DNA of 64,000 nt, taken from positions 203,043 through 267,042 of the forward strand of contig JAGWBV010000003.1 in assembly GCA_021295715.1 (NCBI GenBank), read 5' to 3'. A program made the position numbers and the translations under genes. The notes beneath the pieces were generated by a model. It was given only the letters and a program-made list of their open reading frames with translations, ran no database searches and was not told where the DNA came from. Of this stretch, positions 1 through 45,115 are shown piece by piece (position 1 is the first letter of the stretch; every line of letters starts with the position of its first letter). This DNA comes from Candidatus Poribacteria bacterium (GTDB taxonomy: Bacteria > Poribacteria > WGA-4E > WGA-3G).

Positions 1-1
1 A

Positions 2-334
2 ACGAAAGAAGAACCTAAGGTAGAACCGGTAGAAGAAATACCGGATCCGACAATACCCGAATTTTCACCAGAGACACAAGGATTCGGAATTGAACCGGAA
101 ATAGAAGGATTAGAAACTGAACCACCGCCTCCCACGCCACAAATCCCGTTGGTCCTGTGGATAGCGACGAACAAAGATCTGTATACACATCACACTCGCT
201 CTGCGGATGTATGGGAGTACACAACGACACCCCAGATACTCACGGGTGAATTGATAGTAGATTCTCTCGTCGTGGTAAACAATAGAATCTGGTTAGCGAC
301 CTCTAACGGTTTAGCAACTATGAATGCTCAATAA
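2..334 (+). CDS. 3' end of a gene entering from upstream (partial, function unknown)
   Basis: Frame 2 is open from the window edge to TAA at 332-334. It translates as a Pro/Glu-rich linker followed by a C-terminal domain. The ORF-track piece 149..334 is only its Met-initiated tail. Confidence 0.4.
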   Translation, partial: TKEEPKVEPVEEIPDPTIPEFSPETQGFGIEPEIEGLETEPPPPTPQIPLVLWIATNKDLYTHHTRSADVWEYTTTPQILTGELIVDSLVVVNNRIWLATSNGLATMNAQ

Positions 335-38459: not shown

Positions 38460-39107
38460 CTACGATGCCGCTGCCCATTTCACACCTTGGGTGAGGAATT
38501 TCTGCATTCCGGCGCGCTCAAAGGTTCCGGGTCCGTGCCCCAAAGTGGTGTAAAAGACGCGTCCAGAACCGTAAGACCTGACCCATGCCATCGGGTGTGC
38601 CTTACCGAACCACTCAGCAGATGCCAACACATGAATGTGCGGATCGTGGGCGGAGATATAGATTTCATCTTCCACATCAAAATCTTCGACACCTTCGGTC
38701 GTAGGATGTTCGCTATCCTCAATATGGACAGTAAACGTTGAGCCGGGCGGATGCCAATTGGAAGCACCACCGATGAGATCCATTGCTTGACCACTGATCC
38801 ACCACGCGGTCCCGTGAATGCCGACCAGCCCCTTGCCGCTATTGACAAATTGGAACAAACCCTCTTCTTCAGCGGATGCTAAATCGGAGACACGGGCGAC
38901 GGAGCCGTCCGCTTGGCGTTCCGTCCGCGTGAAGCCGGTGCCAAAGACACACGCATCGTAGGAATTCAATGCCTCGGATGCTAAAATCCCTTTATCGTCA
39001 GTTAACGTCGCTGAAATATTAGCATCGTCGGCGAGAAAATCGTGAATGATGCTGGCACTTGCATTGAAACCGTGGTTTTCACCTGATAATACGAGAATTT
39101 TCGACAT
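38460..39107 (-). CDS. ThuA-like (class I glutamine amidotransferase-like) protein
   Basis: KGLVGIHG ... RVFYTTLGHG matches ThuA family motifs. Confidence 0.75.
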   Translation of the reverse strand: MSKILVLSGENHGFNASASIIHDFLADDANISATLTDDKGILASEALNSYDACVFGTGFTRTERQADGSVARVSDLASAEEEGLFQFVNSGKGLVGIHGTAWWISGQAMDLIGGASNWHPPGSTFTVHIEDSEHPTTEGVEDFDVEDEIYISAHDPHIHVLASAEWFGKAHPMAWVRSYGSGRVFYTTLGHGPGTFERAGMQKFLTQGVKWAAAS

Positions 39108-39360
39108 GAGAGCCTCCAGTGTAAATCAAAGACACATTGCGTCTTAATGGCACAAACAATTTGAAAACGGCACTAAATCCGCCGCTTACGATAAAAAATC
39201 GAACGCAAGAACTGCAATTTGTGGAGATAGTTTAATGGAAACTCAAAATTGTGTCAAACCAATTCTCAAAAATTTACCCCTTCAGAAAAAAATTGAACTT
39301 TATTAATGCCTCGTGTATAATTCGTAGCAATCTGATATTCCGACTACACGGAGATAGCAC

Positions 39361-40158
39361 ATGAAAATGCCCAAACTCGTCGTTGGATACCTTATGGATG
39401 ACGAAATGTTCGTCAAATCTTTCACGATCCCAGAATCTCACGATTGGATCAAGTGGTTAGCGAACGAGGAACTTGCTCAGTTTTTTGGGGAATTACTGGA
39501 ATTGATGATCCAAATTTCAGAGGACAAGGAAGATAGCGAAACGCTTCAGACTTTTCTCGACTTTTGGCATGAAATTGCCTTAAGTTGGCGCGAAATAGCC
39601 TTAGGCGAGGAAGATTCTGAGATATTTGAAGAAGCTAGCAAGACCTCTCCGACCGTCGTTACCGATTGGAGCGTTGATGCTTTAGAAGCTGCCTTAAAAG
39701 GGCAAGATCCCGCGACGCTTTTGAATTCTCTCGCCGGTTTCATCGGAAAAGCCATGATCGGTTCCGAACGGGATGTCGTGGCAGATACTTTGGAGGCAGA
39801 ACAGGAATTGGATTCGCCCTGGATAGATATTATTGGGGTGCAACCGGAGCAAAGACCAAGGACTCGCAAGACGCACGCTGAACCGGAGCCTGTGGCTGAT
39901 GTGACGAAACAGCAACGAGACACCTACTTAGCGCAACCTATCCGCGAACTTGAACTCTCTACCCGAGCCTACAATTCTCTTAAAAATGAAAATATCAAAA
40001 CCGTCCGAGAACTCGTCGCAAAAATGGAATGGGACCTTCTGGAATACCAGAATTTCGGAGAGAAGTCGCTCCTCGAAGTCCAAAACCGACTCGCTGTCAG
40101 GGGCCTCTACCTCGGAATGGACCCCGACGACACGGACGACGAGGAGGCATCATTCTAA
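39361..40158 (+). CDS. protein with unknown N-terminal domain and C-terminal RNA polymerase alpha-subunit CTD-like helix-hairpin-helix domain (paralog A)
   Basis: The C-terminus IRELELSTRAYNSLKNENIKTVRELVAKMEWDLLEYQNFGEKSLLEVQNRLAVRGLYLGM aligns residue-by-residue with the E. coli RpoA CTD ([58 protein letters not shown]). It has an acidic tail, and GGAGA lies 6 nt upstream of the ATG. Confidence 0.65.
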   Translation: MKMPKLVVGYLMDDEMFVKSFTIPESHDWIKWLANEELAQFFGELLELMIQISEDKEDSETLQTFLDFWHEIALSWREIALGEEDSEIFEEASKTSPTVVTDWSVDALEAALKGQDPATLLNSLAGFIGKAMIGSERDVVADTLEAEQELDSPWIDIIGVQPEQRPRTRKTHAEPEPVADVTKQQRDTYLAQPIRELELSTRAYNSLKNENIKTVRELVAKMEWDLLEYQNFGEKSLLEVQNRLAVRGLYLGMDPDDTDDEEASF

Positions 40159-40270
40159 ATGCCCACATTTTCGATAATATCGATCAACCCCTCAATATGT
40201 GGGAAAACTATTGGGCGGAATATCGCCTAATTGGCGTAAATTCAACATTCTTGCTACAAGGAGACACCAG

Positions 40271-40957
40271 ATGAAAGATGCTAAACTCGTTGTCGGATAC
40301 CTTATAGACGACGAATTGCTCGTCAAATCTGTTCCAATTCCAAAGCCCCACGATTGGGTCAAATGGTTACCGGTAGAAGACCTCGTTGTGTTTTTTCAGG
40401 AATTATTCCAAGTCATAACACAGATTTCAGAGGAAAAGGGAGATAGCGAGACGCTTCGGACCTTTCTCGACCGTTGGTGCGAAGCTGCGTCAGAATCGGA
40501 GCATTATGCGGCGATTTGGGAATCCCTCCCTCATTCGCTCCAAAGAGTCTTGCTCAATCCTGAACGGGACATCGTGGCAGATATTGCTGAGGCAGAACAG
40601 GAATTGGATTCGCCCTGGATAGATATTATCGAGGCCCAACATGAACGGGACCCGCTATTCCCTAACATCTACAGGGAGCCGGAGATCGCTGATGTGACGG
40701 AACAGGAGCGGGATGATTACTTAACCCTATCTATCGCCGCACTCAGACTCCCTACCCGAGCCCACAATTGTCTCGAAAGGGCAAACATCTATACCTTACG
40801 CACACTCGTCGAAAAAACGGAAAAAGAACTACTACTGATCAGTTATTTCGGGATGGGATCGCTCCAAAAAGTCAAAGCAGGACTCGCTCCCATGGGGCTT
40901 TACCTCGGAATGGACCTGGACCCGGAGGAGCTCGATGAGGACGAGGACTACGACTAA
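40271..40957 (+). CDS. paralog B of the alpha-CTD-like domain protein
   Basis: It has the same architecture as paralog A. A 40-nt stretch (EAEQELDSPWIDII) is identical in DNA sequence between the two. AAGGAGA lies upstream of ATG 40271. Confidence 0.65.
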   Translation: MKDAKLVVGYLIDDELLVKSVPIPKPHDWVKWLPVEDLVVFFQELFQVITQISEEKGDSETLRTFLDRWCEAASESEHYAAIWESLPHSLQRVLLNPERDIVADIAEAEQELDSPWIDIIEAQHERDPLFPNIYREPEIADVTEQERDDYLTLSIAALRLPTRAHNCLERANIYTLRTLVEKTEKELLLISYFGMGSLQKVKAGLAPMGLYLGMDLDPEELDEDEDYD

Positions 40958-41015
40958 AACACTCTCAGAAATTGCTGGGACACTTTCCACTGAACATGAC
41001 AAAAGGAAGATGCTA

Positions 41016-41952
41016 ATGCTTAACGTCCGAGAAACACGTCAATATCTCAAAGAATCCGAATTTGAAACCCTCTTTACACAAGAACTTGGATGGGGACCAT
41101 CACACCCAAATACTTCCCATCACAGTAGATGAAACTGAATATACACTCACCGCAATTGCCGAAAAACGCGGAATGGTCGTCTTTGAGTGTGCCGCAACCG
41201 GAGTTTCCGACGAAAGCATCCCCGATTACGCCACCCGTCGCAAAATTCAAAAGCAGGTTGCCAAATCCGTCCACGAACACTTCATCATCTACACCGACGC
41301 TGAGAAAACCACACAAATATGGCAGTGGGTCAAACGCGAACAGGGGAAACCCGATGCATGCCGTGAACACCGGTATAACAGCAACGAACAATCTGGAGAC
41401 TCCCTCATTCAGAAGCTGCGTGCCATCGTTTTTACCCTCGAAGAGGAAGAGGATCTTTCACTTCCTGACGTGACCGGACGCGTCGGAGCAGCCTTTTACG
41501 CTGAACGGGTTACCAAAAAGTTTTATGACCGTTTCAAGAAAGAGCATGACGTATTCCTTAAATTTCTCAAAGGCATTCCCGATAGAGAGATGCAAAAGTG
41601 GTACGTTTCAGTAATGCTCAACCGCCTGATGTTCATCTATTTCATTCAGAAGAGAGGTTTTCTCAATAACGACGAAAACTATCTACTTACTAAATTGGCA
41701 GATAGCCAATCGAGAGGCATCAACGGATACTACAAAGAATTTCTCTGCCCACTCTTCTTTGAAGGATTTGCGAAACCGGAAGCAGAACGGAGCAGAGATG
41801 TAAAACGCCTGCTCGGTAAAATTCCCTACCTCAACGGCGGTATCTTTCAACAACACCAGCTTGAGACACTCCACGGCGAAAACATTGACATCCCAGACAA
41901 GGCGTTTGAGCAACTTTTCAGGTTCTTTGAGCAATACCAACAGGAGATTTAG
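41016..41952 (+). pseudogene. frameshifted, C-terminally truncated N-terminal fragment of a type IIG/BREX PglX-like restriction-modification enzyme
   Basis: Frame A reads ... EFETLFTQELGW and frame B reads DHHTQILPITVDETEY ...; they join across a GGGG run at 41092-41095. The NRLMFIYFIQKRGFL motif is typical of the helical linker of Eco57I/TaqI-like gamma-class MTases. A stop at 41952 leaves only about 310 aa. Confidence 0.45.
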
Positions 41953-42753
41953 CGCGCTTCGCATTATCTTGTTTATCCTAAAATCCTGAAAATTTTGATT
42001 CAGACAATTATGCTCTGGGATTGGCTCCGCACTCCGTCAAAACGTCGAACAATCCCGCGCCTACCCTCCGTTGATTGCTAATTCATCTGGAGGGTCTACG
42101 CGAAACATCTCGTGTTTTCACGGAGAGAGGACATATTGCCTTCCACGAACCCACTGACCCCCTGACTTTAGAAAATCCTCCGTGAATCGCACTGAAAACC
42201 TACCACAGAAAACATCTTCCTCCAGTAGACTAAAGAACGTTATTCCCTTCCTATCCTGAAAATCCTATAATCCTGATTCAGACAGTATAAACCGAAGCCT
42301 TCCTCCCACCTTTGAAATTTCAGAGTAAACTTCTGAGAAACCTCCTGAAAAAACCGCTGAGAATCCAGTCCCAGTATGGGTTCACGGACTTTTCCTGAAA
42401 CCTATTATTTTTCCATTTACTCTGAATACTCTGAAACGCGCACTATTTCCTTTACGGGACTGCTGTGTAATACGGTTGCACGTATTCCCAACTTCTGTTA
42501 AAATTGTAGATGAAGGAGTTTTAAACAGTCTATGAAAACTATACAACAAAAAAACACAACGAACAAAAAACAGAAGCAACGCCTCGCTTTTCCTGTCTAT
42601 GATGAAGAGGACATCCTCAACTTGGACGCGGTCATAGTCACCCCTCCACCGCGTCGATCAGGCACAATACGAGTTAAGTTAATATACAAGGGACGCAGTA
42701 AACCAATTCCGGTTGAGGATCCTTGGGAAGAGTAGTTAGTTGACATAAGCATT

Positions 42754-43404
42754 ATGAAATCATCCGACTACAATGACAATGTCTTTATCAATTGTCCATT
42801 TGATCCAGTTTACAAACCGCTGTTTGACGCAATAGTGTTTGCAACATACGATTGCGGTTTTGTCCCTCGTTGTGCGCTTGAAGAAGACAATGCAAGCCAA
42901 GTTCGGATTGATAAAATCTATAGTATTATTGAGGTTTGCCGTTATGGCATTCACGACATATCCAGAATAGAATTAGACGAGGATTCAGGTTTCCCTTGAT
43001 TTAATATGCCGTTGGAATTGGGTGTTTTCCTCGGTGCTAAGAAATTTGGTGTAGAAGAACAAAAAGGAAAAAAATGTCTCGTACTGGACAGTGAACCCTA
43101 TCGATATCAACAGTTTATCTCAGATATCGCAGGGCAAGATATTCAGGCACACAGCAACGCGCCAGAGGAAATTATGGCAGTCGTCCGGAATTGGCTCCGC
43201 ACCGCGTCGAGACGTCGGACAATTCCAGATGGAAGCATCATTTGGGGACGTTACCAAGACTTTATGCGGGATTTACCGCAAATGGCTCAAATATGGCAGT
43301 TAAATGCTAATAATCTGATTTTTAATGATTATACTTGGATGATTGTGAAGTGGTTGCGGACTAAAGAGAATCGTTTATCTCAACATGTTCAAGGAGGTGA
43401 TTAG
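42754..43404 (+). pseudogene. nucleoside 2-deoxyribosyltransferase-like / SLOG-superfamily protein interrupted by an in-frame TGA
   Basis: ORFs 42754..42999 and 43006..43404 are in the same frame, separated only by TGA at 42997-42999. The N-terminus VFINCPFDPVY resembles the NDT start (YLAGPFF), and LNMPLELGVFLGAKKFG resembles the NDT catalytic Glu region. Confidence 0.45.
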
Positions 43405-44467: not shown

Positions 44468-45115
44468 GTGACGCAGTCAATTCAACGTATCACACAAAAA
44501 GACACGGATTATCCAACAGGATTGGAGCAGTATTTAAAAACGGAGACACCGGAAACGATCTGGGCACGCGGGAATATTGACCTGTTACTTGGGCAAAACA
44601 CCACCTTAAGCGGAGACCTCTGGGCACTTTTCTGCTCCAGCAAATGTCCCGGGGATATTATCCTGAAAACGCACGACTTAGCTCAAACATTCAAGGAAAG
44701 AGAGATCCCAACGATCGGTGGGTATCACTCTCCAGTTGAACAAGAGTGCCTACGCGTTTTACTGCGTGGCTCACAACCGATTCTTTTATGTCCGGCACGG
44801 AGCATCGAAAACATGCGACTGAAATCGGCGTGGAAGGAGGCGTTGTCTGCGGAGCGTCTATTAATCCTATCTATTTTTGAGAGTCGCCATCGGCGATCAA
44901 CAGCGGCATTGGCGCACCAACGCAACGCCTTTGTTGCCGCACTTGCGGATAAAATCTGTATCGCCCACGCTGCAGAGGACAGCAAGATTTTGGAATTCGC
45001 GCAGATGGTGTTGGCGTGGGGCAAACCCGTTTTTACTTTTGAGACACCAGCAAACGATTCACTTTTTCAACTTGGGACACGACGGATTGAAACGTCCCAA
45101 TTCGGAGGCAAATAA
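44468..45115 (+). CDS. DprA/Smf-like Rossmann-fold (SLOG superfamily) protein, Rossmann domain only
   Basis: The blocks ALFCSSKCPGDI, IGGYHSPVEQECLRVLL, PILLCPARS, QRNAFVAALADKICIAHAAEDS and KPVFTFE align with the DprA Rossmann-domain blocks. Confidence 0.65.
   Translation: MTQSIQRITQKDTDYPTGLEQYLKTETPETIWARGNIDLLLGQNTTLSGDLWALFCSSKCPGDIILKTHDLAQTFKEREIPTIGGYHSPVEQECLRVLLRGSQPILLCPARSIENMRLKSAWKEALSAERLLILSIFESRHRRSTAALAHQRNAFVAALADKICIAHAAEDSKILEFAQMVLAWGKPVFTFETPANDSLFQLGTRRIETSQFGGK

Follow-up and report, generated by a model that had tools for sequence, protein, structure and literature searches.

The window analysed here, 64,000 nt of contig JAGWBV010000003.1 of a Candidatus Poribacteria bacterium (GenBank assembly GCA_021295715.1), contains two genes in tandem, A and B, that encode related small proteins. 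Each protein consists of an N-terminal module (N-module) of about 75 aa, a variable linker, a conserved ELDSPWIDII-type motif and a domain homologous to the C-terminal domain of RNA polymerase's alpha subunit (alpha-CTD), and ends in an acidic tail (DPDDTDDEEASF in A and DPEELDEDEDYD in B). The features of the locus are listed in Table 1. The sizes of the two open reading frames (ORFs; 265 and 228 aa) and the tails given in a first-pass annotation, made by a model from the letters alone, were confirmed from the sequence. The ATG of B at 40271 is preceded by a GGAGA Shine-Dalgarno sequence, and a longer, 252-aa form of B with a GTG start was rejected, as the extension merely reads through the debris of a helicase gene. 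The product of gene A is 100% identical to a database protein (P0001), and gene B is 93-94% identical to the B genes of two loci in related genomes (L006 and L009).

Both C-termini match the Pfam family RNA_pol_A_CTD (PF03118), which has a gathering cut-off of 23.8 bits (A, 75.5 bits, E 2.7e-21, aa 185-245; B, 54.4 bits, E 1.1e-14, aa 145-205), and A is also matched by 55 solved RpoA chains in PDB (best E 2e-13). The homology to the alpha-CTD proposed in the first-pass annotation is therefore significant, and the proposed paralogy of A and B also holds, the proteins being 46% identical over their whole length (E 2e-66). At the DNA level, the genes are 72-73% identical in three blocks outside an identical stretch of 41 nt that encodes the conserved EAEQELDSPWIDII motif. 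Proteins of this family are strongly acidic (median net charge -32, pI 4.26), with the alpha-CTD segment itself neutral, as it is in the host RpoA.

Table 1. Features of the A-B locus in the window, and positions of the antitoxin-like gene modules in related loci
Feature	Position	Residues (aa)	Strand	Details
Promoter of gene A	39286-39321		+	A-tract 39286-39292 (7 nt); TTGAAC 39293-39298; 17-nt spacer; TATAAT 39316-39321
Gene A	39361-40158		+	265 aa; stop TAA 40156-40158
Gene A, N-module	39361-39600	1-80	+	
Gene A, variable acidic linker		81-180	+	
Gene A, motif	39805-39834	149-158	+	ELDSPWIDII
Gene A, alpha-CTD	39901-40119	181-253	+	
Gene A, acidic tail	40120-40155	254-265	+	
Helicase remnants	40159-40228		+	~70 nt; HKD-SNF2 start codon and ~11 codons (40159-40192, one base lost); internal piece, ~aa 314-326 (40192-40228)
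Surviving 5' leader of gene B	40228-40270		+	Shine-Dalgarno sequence kept; -35 box and most of -10 box deleted
Gene B	40271-40957		+	228 aa from ATG at 40271
Gene B, N-module	40271-40495	1-75	+	Followed by linker
Gene B, motif	40601-40630	111-120	+	ELDSPWIDII
Gene B, alpha-CTD	40691-40912	141-214	+	
Gene B, acidic tail	40913-40954	215-228	+	
Identical stretch of 41 nt	39793-39833 (A); 40589-40629 (B)		+	Exhaustive exact-match search between both genes
MmeI-like type IIG remnant	41016-41940		+	Residues 1-308 of 1084, frameshifted; tblastn with the L006 enzyme
109-aa gene and RelE/ParE toxin module	L004 10203-10810; L015 14248-14855; L017 14256-14860; L030 9478-10085			

The alpha-CTD of A and B is a copy of that of the lineage's own RpoA, linker and tail included. 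Outside the family, the best matches are RpoA proteins of Poribacteria; A is 57% identical to residues 232-314 of Poribacteria RpoA, and B is 47% identical to Poribacteria RpoA, tail included. The similarity spans the EPEP interdomain linker, the alpha-CTD and the LGMD-acidic tail, and a column-by-column alignment shows that many residues specific to Poribacteria RpoA are common to the family. AlphaFold2 predicts a helical fold for the domain with a pLDDT of about 90. That A and B are themselves RpoA was ruled out by the missing alpha N-terminal domains (no Pfam match to PF01193 or PF01000 in either protein) and by scores below the RpoA equivalog cut-offs (TIGR02027, NF0035xx; best scores 78.2, where the cut-off is 302, and 68.6, where it is 227.8). 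The genuine Poribacteria RpoA proteins (P0108-P0115) have all three RpoA domains.

Conservation within the family is restricted to the fold core and the DNA-contact residues, and the surfaces are variable. Using E. coli RpoA numbering (the E. coli reference in the alignment was entered by hand), the DNA-binding '265 determinant' is kept, with the equivalent of R265 (R202 in A and R162 in B) found in 95-100% of the family, C269 in 91-100% and G296 in 100%. The DNA-contact position N268 is kept in 65-80%, position 299 is S or T, and A in the window has S at the position equivalent to C269. In the same alignment, the family has lost the determinants of sigma and activator contact, 261 and 287. 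All Poribacteria RpoA sequences have E at position 261, where most family members have G and B of the window has R; at position 287, K in the host RpoA corresponds to W in most of the family. The retention of the DNA-contact residues and the loss of the sigma-contact position 261 speak for DNA binding rather than for mimicry of protein contacts. Compared with the alpha-CTD of RpoA (PF03118), the family thus shares sequence homology, predicted fold, flexible linker, the acidic tail of Poribacteria RpoA and the DNA-contact positions R265, N268, C269, G296 and S299. It differs in the loss of 261 and 287, in the absence of an alpha N-terminal domain, so that the proteins would not assemble into polymerase, in faster evolution, and in the position of its genes, which lie in defence hot-spots rather than in the ribosomal-protein operon.

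The first-pass annotation had described the N-terminal part as a single domain of about 170 aa that matched no recognised family. The lack of a curated family stands, whereas the single domain resolves into the N-module, the linker and the motif. For the N-module, AlphaFold2 gives a beta-hairpin and three helices to about residue 75 with a pLDDT of 60-80, falling below 50 in the linker; the two models, of A in full and of B's N-terminal part, have mean values of 61 and 59, which also denote low confidence for this module. No family in Pfam or NCBIfam was found for the N-terminal part other than DUF6247 at a score below the cut-off (19.1 bits against 26.9; seen in 7 of 11 relatives, best E 3.2e-5), and neither A nor B matched a helix-turn-helix family in these collections. 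Literature searches found no paper that mentions DUF6247.

The N-terminal part is, however, not without relatives. In addition to the weak likeness to DUF6247, the N-module and the motif segment are 37-77% identical to those of a 109-aa protein (AT109). The segment common to the family and this protein is L-N-S-E-x-D-V-L-A-D-I-x-E-A-E-x-E-L-D, in the form L-I-N-S-E-P-x-V-L-A-D-I-A-E-A-E-Q-E-L-D in the 109-aa protein, where a C-terminal end of GGGKPWSQIKKEIGL takes the place of the linker and alpha-CTD. The 109-aa gene overlaps the gene for a 93-aa RelE/ParE toxin by 4 nt in L004, L015 and L030, and the two genes are also adjacent in L007 and L017. The 93-aa protein (ParE93) scores 26.6 bits with Pfam ParE_toxin (cut-off 23) and matches a RelE-like PHROG (4e-14). 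This gene pair resembles an undescribed antitoxin family with sub-threshold similarity to DUF6247. In a distant relative, P0145, the N-module precedes a HicB antitoxin domain (2.2e-10), and the HicB_lk_antitox match is confined to that extra domain. From these gene arrangements, we infer that the N-terminal half of the family is an antitoxin-type module. A possible likeness of the motif region to the toxin-binding segment of YefM was discarded, as BLAST found no similarity to the E. coli protein.

Relative to type II antitoxins, then, A and B have in common an N-module and segment homologous to a 109-aa protein that occupies the slot of B with the same promoter, leader and acidity, as well as one family relative fused to an antitoxin domain. 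They differ in that the toxin-side tail end is replaced by the linker and alpha-CTD, no curated antitoxin family is matched, and the antitoxin role of the 109-aa form is itself putative. They also differ in having no toxin partner; in the window, no toxin gene accompanies either gene, and A is followed by helicase debris and B by the remnant of an MmeI-like gene.

Twenty distinct loci were compared. The canonical order is a ThuA gene on the opposite strand, A, a gene for a 1132-aa HKD(PLD)-SNF2 helicase, B, and a gene for a 1084-aa MmeI-like type IIG enzyme, with a few small genes and a DprA-like gene downstream. A and B are therefore not a conserved tandem pair. The two types flank a helicase gene of 3.4 kb and are adjacent only where this gene has been deleted. 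PADLOC identified the helicase as 'HKD+Snf2' (3.9e-53), with DrmD-like matches too, and the intact MmeI-like enzyme of L006 as REase_MTase_IIG (E = 0, positions 4-1095 of 1100). The intact loci contain only the helicase, the MmeI-like enzyme and small head genes. A BREX-related DUF499 system was considered and rejected, as no DUF499, PglZ or BrxC is present in the gene lists of the intact loci (definitions from PMC12839542).

A and B are the promoter-proximal genes of two defence operons. An A-type gene lies upstream of 8 of the 12 intact helicase genes, and its stop codon directly abuts the helicase ATG in seven of these eight. The slot before the MmeI-like gene holds B in six loci, the 109-aa gene with the RelE/ParE toxin gene in five (L004, L007, L015, L017 and L030) and nothing in two (L010 and L029); the gap between B and the MmeI-like gene is about 60-130 nt. 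The first-pass annotation had placed A and B directly upstream of a decayed restriction/defence island. The decayed locus is real, but the genes do not merely lie next to it; examination of gene neighbourhoods, a check proposed in that annotation, found them at the head of its two operons. The head genes are accessory and dispensable for the enzymes. In L029 (6001-12901), an intact helicase gene and an intact MmeI-like gene are adjacent with no head gene, indicating that the two-enzyme core can stand alone, and intact enzyme pairs with only one head gene are found in L010, L013, L016 and L030.

Family genes also occupy a second hot-spot, after a xanthine/uracil permease gene (Xan_ur_permease), where L016 has a set of helicase, B and MmeI-like genes. 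At this hot-spot in L020, a 330-aa family protein with two tandem alpha-CTDs (P0067, 1918-2910) is encoded ahead of a 146-aa MmeI fragment, an AAA_15/AAA_21 ATPase and a 178-aa gene. Genes for IS605-type OrfB/TnpB were seen in or beside the island in L001 (7520-8635), L006 (267-1379) and L016 (15960-17024), and their recurrence fits a rapid turnover of the island.

This arrangement raises the question of whether A and B act on the enzymes themselves, A by binding the HKD-SNF2 helicase and B by binding the MmeI-like enzyme. They could then serve as inhibitors, either antitoxin-like or mimicking DNA, or as chaperones or adaptors, and the alpha-CTD would hold the complex on DNA. The homology of the N-module and motif to a protein in the antitoxin position, overlapping a RelE/ParE gene, and the high acidity of the family are consistent with such a role. 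So are the abutting stop and start codons in seven loci, an order and coupling typical of an inhibitor followed by its enzyme, and the survival of intact A and B beside decayed enzymes, as antitoxins outlive toxins. However, the enzymes that are intact with one head gene or none indicate that neutralisation is not needed, B is not coupled to the MmeI-like gene, solo copies occur without an enzyme nearby, and the Poribacteria proteins examined are acidic in general (RpoA -30, helicase -49). On balance, we consider control at the protein level unlikely, though it is the strongest of the alternatives.

The tandem layout of A and B in the window is the deletion scar of a decayed defence cassette. 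In blastn comparisons, 39000-40192 of the window, which takes in A and the helicase gene's first 35 nt, corresponds to L007 9642-10833. The next 37 nt (40192-40228) correspond to L007 11739-11775 and L006 3380-3416, inside the helicase gene, and 40228-41939 corresponds to L006 5958-7668, a stretch that begins 43 nt upstream of B and reaches codon 308 in the MmeI-like gene. Beyond 41940, the window continues with sequence that is located far downstream in L009. No other helicase sequence was detected in the window by tblastn, but the TAAATG junction of the A stop and helicase start survives at 40156-40161. The MmeI-like remnant is 94% identical to its intact counterpart, with residues 1-31 in one frame and 24-308 in another. 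From the DNA alignment with L006, L007 and L009, it follows that the helicase gene was lost in two steps and that the restriction gene was truncated and frameshifted. Different, independent partial deletions of the helicase gene are found in L009 and L011. In the window, the enzymes are gone, and A and B are left as orphans, B without its own promoter. That apparent tandem paralogues can be the scar of a decayed cassette is relevant to the annotation of such loci.

The promoter of A was recovered as a 10/12 match in a promoter scan. The window has one occurrence of the pattern AAAANNTTGAAY-N16-18-TATAAT (0 expected), and 19 of the 30 loci fetched also have matches. All matches checked, namely those of L006, L007 and L030 and those about 74 nt upstream of the locus-centred family genes, are upstream of family genes, and a wider regulon defined by the pattern was not supported in the sequence examined. 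Alignment of the upstream regions revealed a module in which an A-tract adjoins TTGAAY, TATAAT follows after a 17-nt spacer, and a conserved leader and GGAG come next; its promoter is strong and of sigma-70 type. This module precedes nearly all A, B, antitoxin-like and solo genes examined, the exceptions being B of the window, where it was lost, and the gene in L014, which has no clear -35 box. Ahead of B, a promoter-like site is present in L006 (5933-5961) but not in the window. Between the head and enzyme genes, no terminator-like site was found except for a weak, conserved hairpin (GGCAT...ATGCC) across the A stop and helicase start (window 40147-40164, L006 2427-2444). The leader and this hairpin fold no better than shuffled controls (z -0.9 to +1.0 overall, -0.5 to -0.9 for the hairpin), and no Rfam family was found in 38500-43000.

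We treat the architecture of the proteins, the origin of the alpha-CTD, the operon-head position, the dispensability of the head genes and the deletion history as established. As to function, our tentative preference is for A and B as accessory, self-regulating leader proteins that would control the defence operons through the copied DNA-binding domain. The N-module would make the protein dimeric, presenting two tethered alpha-CTDs as the RNA polymerase alpha dimer does, minus the assembly platform. Through the retained R265-type determinant, these could bind A/T-rich DNA in the minor groove, and the likeliest target would be in their own promoters, at the A-tract next to the -35 box, the place of the proximal UP subsite in E. 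coli. A bound family alpha-CTD would compete with that of the polymerase and so repress, as negative feedback, both the head gene and the nuclease gene whose transcription follows; behind A, the nuclease gene is also translationally coupled. Such a role would parallel that of the controller proteins and antitoxins in restriction and toxin-antitoxin operons. This regulatory model fits the operon-head position, the fixed promoter module, the apparent kinship to antitoxins, and the conservation of DNA contacts with protein-contact surfaces free to vary.

All named relatives of A and B are from Candidatus Poribacteria, uncultured symbionts of sponges. A word-indexed search yielded about 107 clusters (90% identity) of full-length relatives. 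When 185,579 species were scanned at one genome apiece, 10 loci were recovered, all from metagenome-assembled genomes of Poribacteria, and a profile of the N-terminal part found 36 proteins with E <=0.001 among 1.84 billion representative proteins. A scan of JGI metagenomes added only two further loci, and in phage and plasmid collections the matches were to the alpha-CTD only, in rpoA genes. The N- and C-terminal types occur in mixed combinations across genomes. Both types are old, both are kept in divergent lineages such as L021, and within a gene pair some segments have diverged far more than others. The segment-wise divergence and mixed types point to frequent recombination between copies, which explains the 41-nt identity between A and B better than recent duplication does. 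The first-pass annotation, which had counted 40 nt, had offered both recent duplication and gene conversion; the identity is real and gene conversion is its likelier source, but recent duplication does not agree with two types that are old and mosaic.

The family also evolves rapidly, with dN/dS 3-7 times that of the neighbouring genes. Values for the N-module, linker and alpha-CTD are 0.24, 0.55 and 0.50 in A, and 0.52, 0.64 and 0.36 in B, compared with 0.09 for ThuA, 0.08 for MR_MLE and 0.07 for the HKD-SNF2 helicase. The relaxed constraint in the linkers, together with a surrounding locus that is often decayed and rearranged, could be taken to mean that A and B are functionless relics, left over from a toxin-antitoxin module that captured a piece of rpoA. 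We regard this as very improbable, given the many clusters with full-length reading frames, dN/dS below 1 in every segment, the retention of both types in divergent lineages and the conservation of promoter and leader.

By textbook account, UP elements and activators dock on the alpha-CTD, a domain that to our knowledge is normally found only in RpoA. The first-pass annotation had suggested that such stand-alone modules bind UP elements or decoy activators away from the polymerase. The proteins would then compete with polymerase alpha at large, an abundant, free alpha-CTD dimer titrating UP elements or activators genome-wide whatever genes lie nearby. The near-consensus, strong promoter, the retained DNA determinant and the maintenance of solo copies away from defence genes are in keeping with this idea. 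Its probability is nevertheless low in our estimation, as the genes keep strictly to variable defence slots and were not found outside Poribacteria, the 261 and 287 determinants are not conserved, and dN/dS of 0.24-0.64 is high for a global regulator.

The family is found only in defence hot-spots (near ThuA and after Xan_ur_permease, with type IIG, HKD-SNF2, AAA_15/21, ParE and TnpB genes), and its domain, linker and tail were all copied from the host RpoA. The copied alpha-CTD might be an integrated decoy or guard, joined to an antitoxin-derived module and serving as bait for phage ADP-ribosyltransferases or take-over factors that attack the host alpha-CTD. Modification of the bait, such as ADP-ribosylation at the R265 equivalent, or its capture would report an attack on transcription and derepress or activate the adjoining nucleases. 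R265 of the alpha-CTD is the target of T4 Alt/ModA, and its equivalent is nearly invariant in the family; phages do target alpha, and such targeting has reportedly been described. Fast amino acid evolution also suits this idea. Against it, the bait has drifted to 47-57% identity while the host domain is almost invariant within the lineage, the loss of the protein-contact positions 261 and 287 makes for poor mimicry, the heads are dispensable for the cassette, and we know of no phage effector for these uncultured hosts. We consider a decoy improbable, rather less so than genome-wide competition. If true, bacteria would here have an equivalent of the integrated decoys of plant NLRs, one that acts through operon control.

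A further point for a decoy is that an RNA-polymerase alpha-CTD-like helical domain has been reported in PglW of type 2 BREX (PMC12839542), and weak matches to PglW and PbeC were found. PglW also provides an alpha-CTD-like domain in an anti-phage system with an MmeI/PglX-type methyltransferase, and A has a weak direct profile match to it (E 2.7e-6, PADLOC). However, the domain of PglW is internal to a 1400-aa kinase/nuclease, whereas A and B are small, stand-alone proteins in which it is C-terminal and was recently copied from the host RpoA.

Several observations weigh against control of the operons through DNA binding, the explanation that we prefer. Foldseek and profile checks of the N-terminal part, of the kind that the first-pass annotation had proposed, gave no match to PDB with E <1 for the N-module fold and nothing significant among PDB sequences. 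With a predicted structure of low confidence and no fold match, dimerisation of the N-module is an assumption. The N-module has a net charge of -7 to -11 and the whole protein one of about -30, so that DNA binding would depend on the alpha-CTD alone, with acidic segments on either side. No conserved inverted repeat or palindromic operator was seen in the promoter alignments, in which no formal motif search was made, and the A-tract could be a plain UP element for polymerase itself. In L014 and L022, solo copies occupy the second hot-spot without a defence gene, and full-length family genes persist beside decayed enzymes in the window, L001, L009, L011 and L012; together, these suggest that a function independent of the operons is possible. 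Rapid evolution is equally expected of a protein at a conflict interface. Finally, the hosts are uncultured, and regulation and binding are predictions only.

Comparable regulators are the controller (C) proteins of restriction-modification systems, helix-turn-helix dimers of the Xre type that have defined C-boxes, and those of defence islands such as BrxR and CapW, which are wHTH-WYL proteins. Like these, A and B are encoded by small, co-oriented genes that, in related loci, have their own strong promoter and head a nuclease operon; A is translationally coupled, autoregulation is presumed, and the enzymes can do without the heads. They differ in that the alpha-CTD is the sole candidate for nucleic-acid binding in A and B and no operator repeat was found.

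In this Poribacteria lineage, a domain of its own polymerase was thus copied, joined to a putative antitoxin-type module and placed with a fixed promoter atop two anti-phage nuclease operons. Under any mechanism, this would be an undescribed wiring of immunity to the transcription machinery, whether by feedback through competition for a UP-like site, by control of the nucleases at the protein level or by a decoy for phage factors; its compass is limited to uncultured sponge symbionts, and its function is a prediction from sequence. Literature searches found no description of the A/B family, of such a use of the domain or of stand-alone alpha-CTD proteins. Short proteins that likewise combine an unrelated N-terminus with one alpha-CTD that passes the Pfam cut-off do exist as the 95-aa NCBIfam family NF005841 ('hypothetical protein') and as viral ORFs. 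These differ from A and B in their unrelated N-termini, other contexts, near-neutral or basic charge, and lack of the unit of promoter and N-module.

The viral ORFs are on IMG/VR contigs, at 7689-8246 in L025 (185 aa), 7815-8225 in L027 (136 aa) and 3178-3531 in L028 (117 aa). Their C-terminal alpha-CTDs score 69-73 bits with Pfam, and neither they nor A and B match any PHROG. If truly phage-encoded, these stand-alone proteins would be a viral counterpart of the A/B family and, should the decoy explanation hold, would represent the phages' part in that conflict. A full-length, 335-aa rpoA paralogue was seen near a terminal-protein gene on the linear plasmid NZ_CP108499.1 of Streptomyces sp. 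NBC_01240 (L024, 5263-6270); 22 Streptomyces plasmid records were matched, with the gene annotated as RNA polymerase alpha subunit, and this one was inspected.

Two minor observations concern the island itself. L001 and L004 are both from the 10.3 Mb ENA contig ctg105775, in which the synteny of ThuA, MR_MLE and NADH dehydrogenase genes occurs twice with different island contents, one a transposase-ridden version and the other an intact cassette; either two strains were joined in assembly or there is a large, real duplication. In the window, the gene at 42754-43404 is broken into ORFs of 81 and 132 aa, whereas its L006 counterpart is intact, encodes 216 aa and matches no family; this is further decay of the same island. 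Next to it are a 67-aa ORF, a gene that matches one recorded as DUF2188 in L006, a gene of HATPase_c_4 type and, at 44468-45115, a short DprA-like gene.

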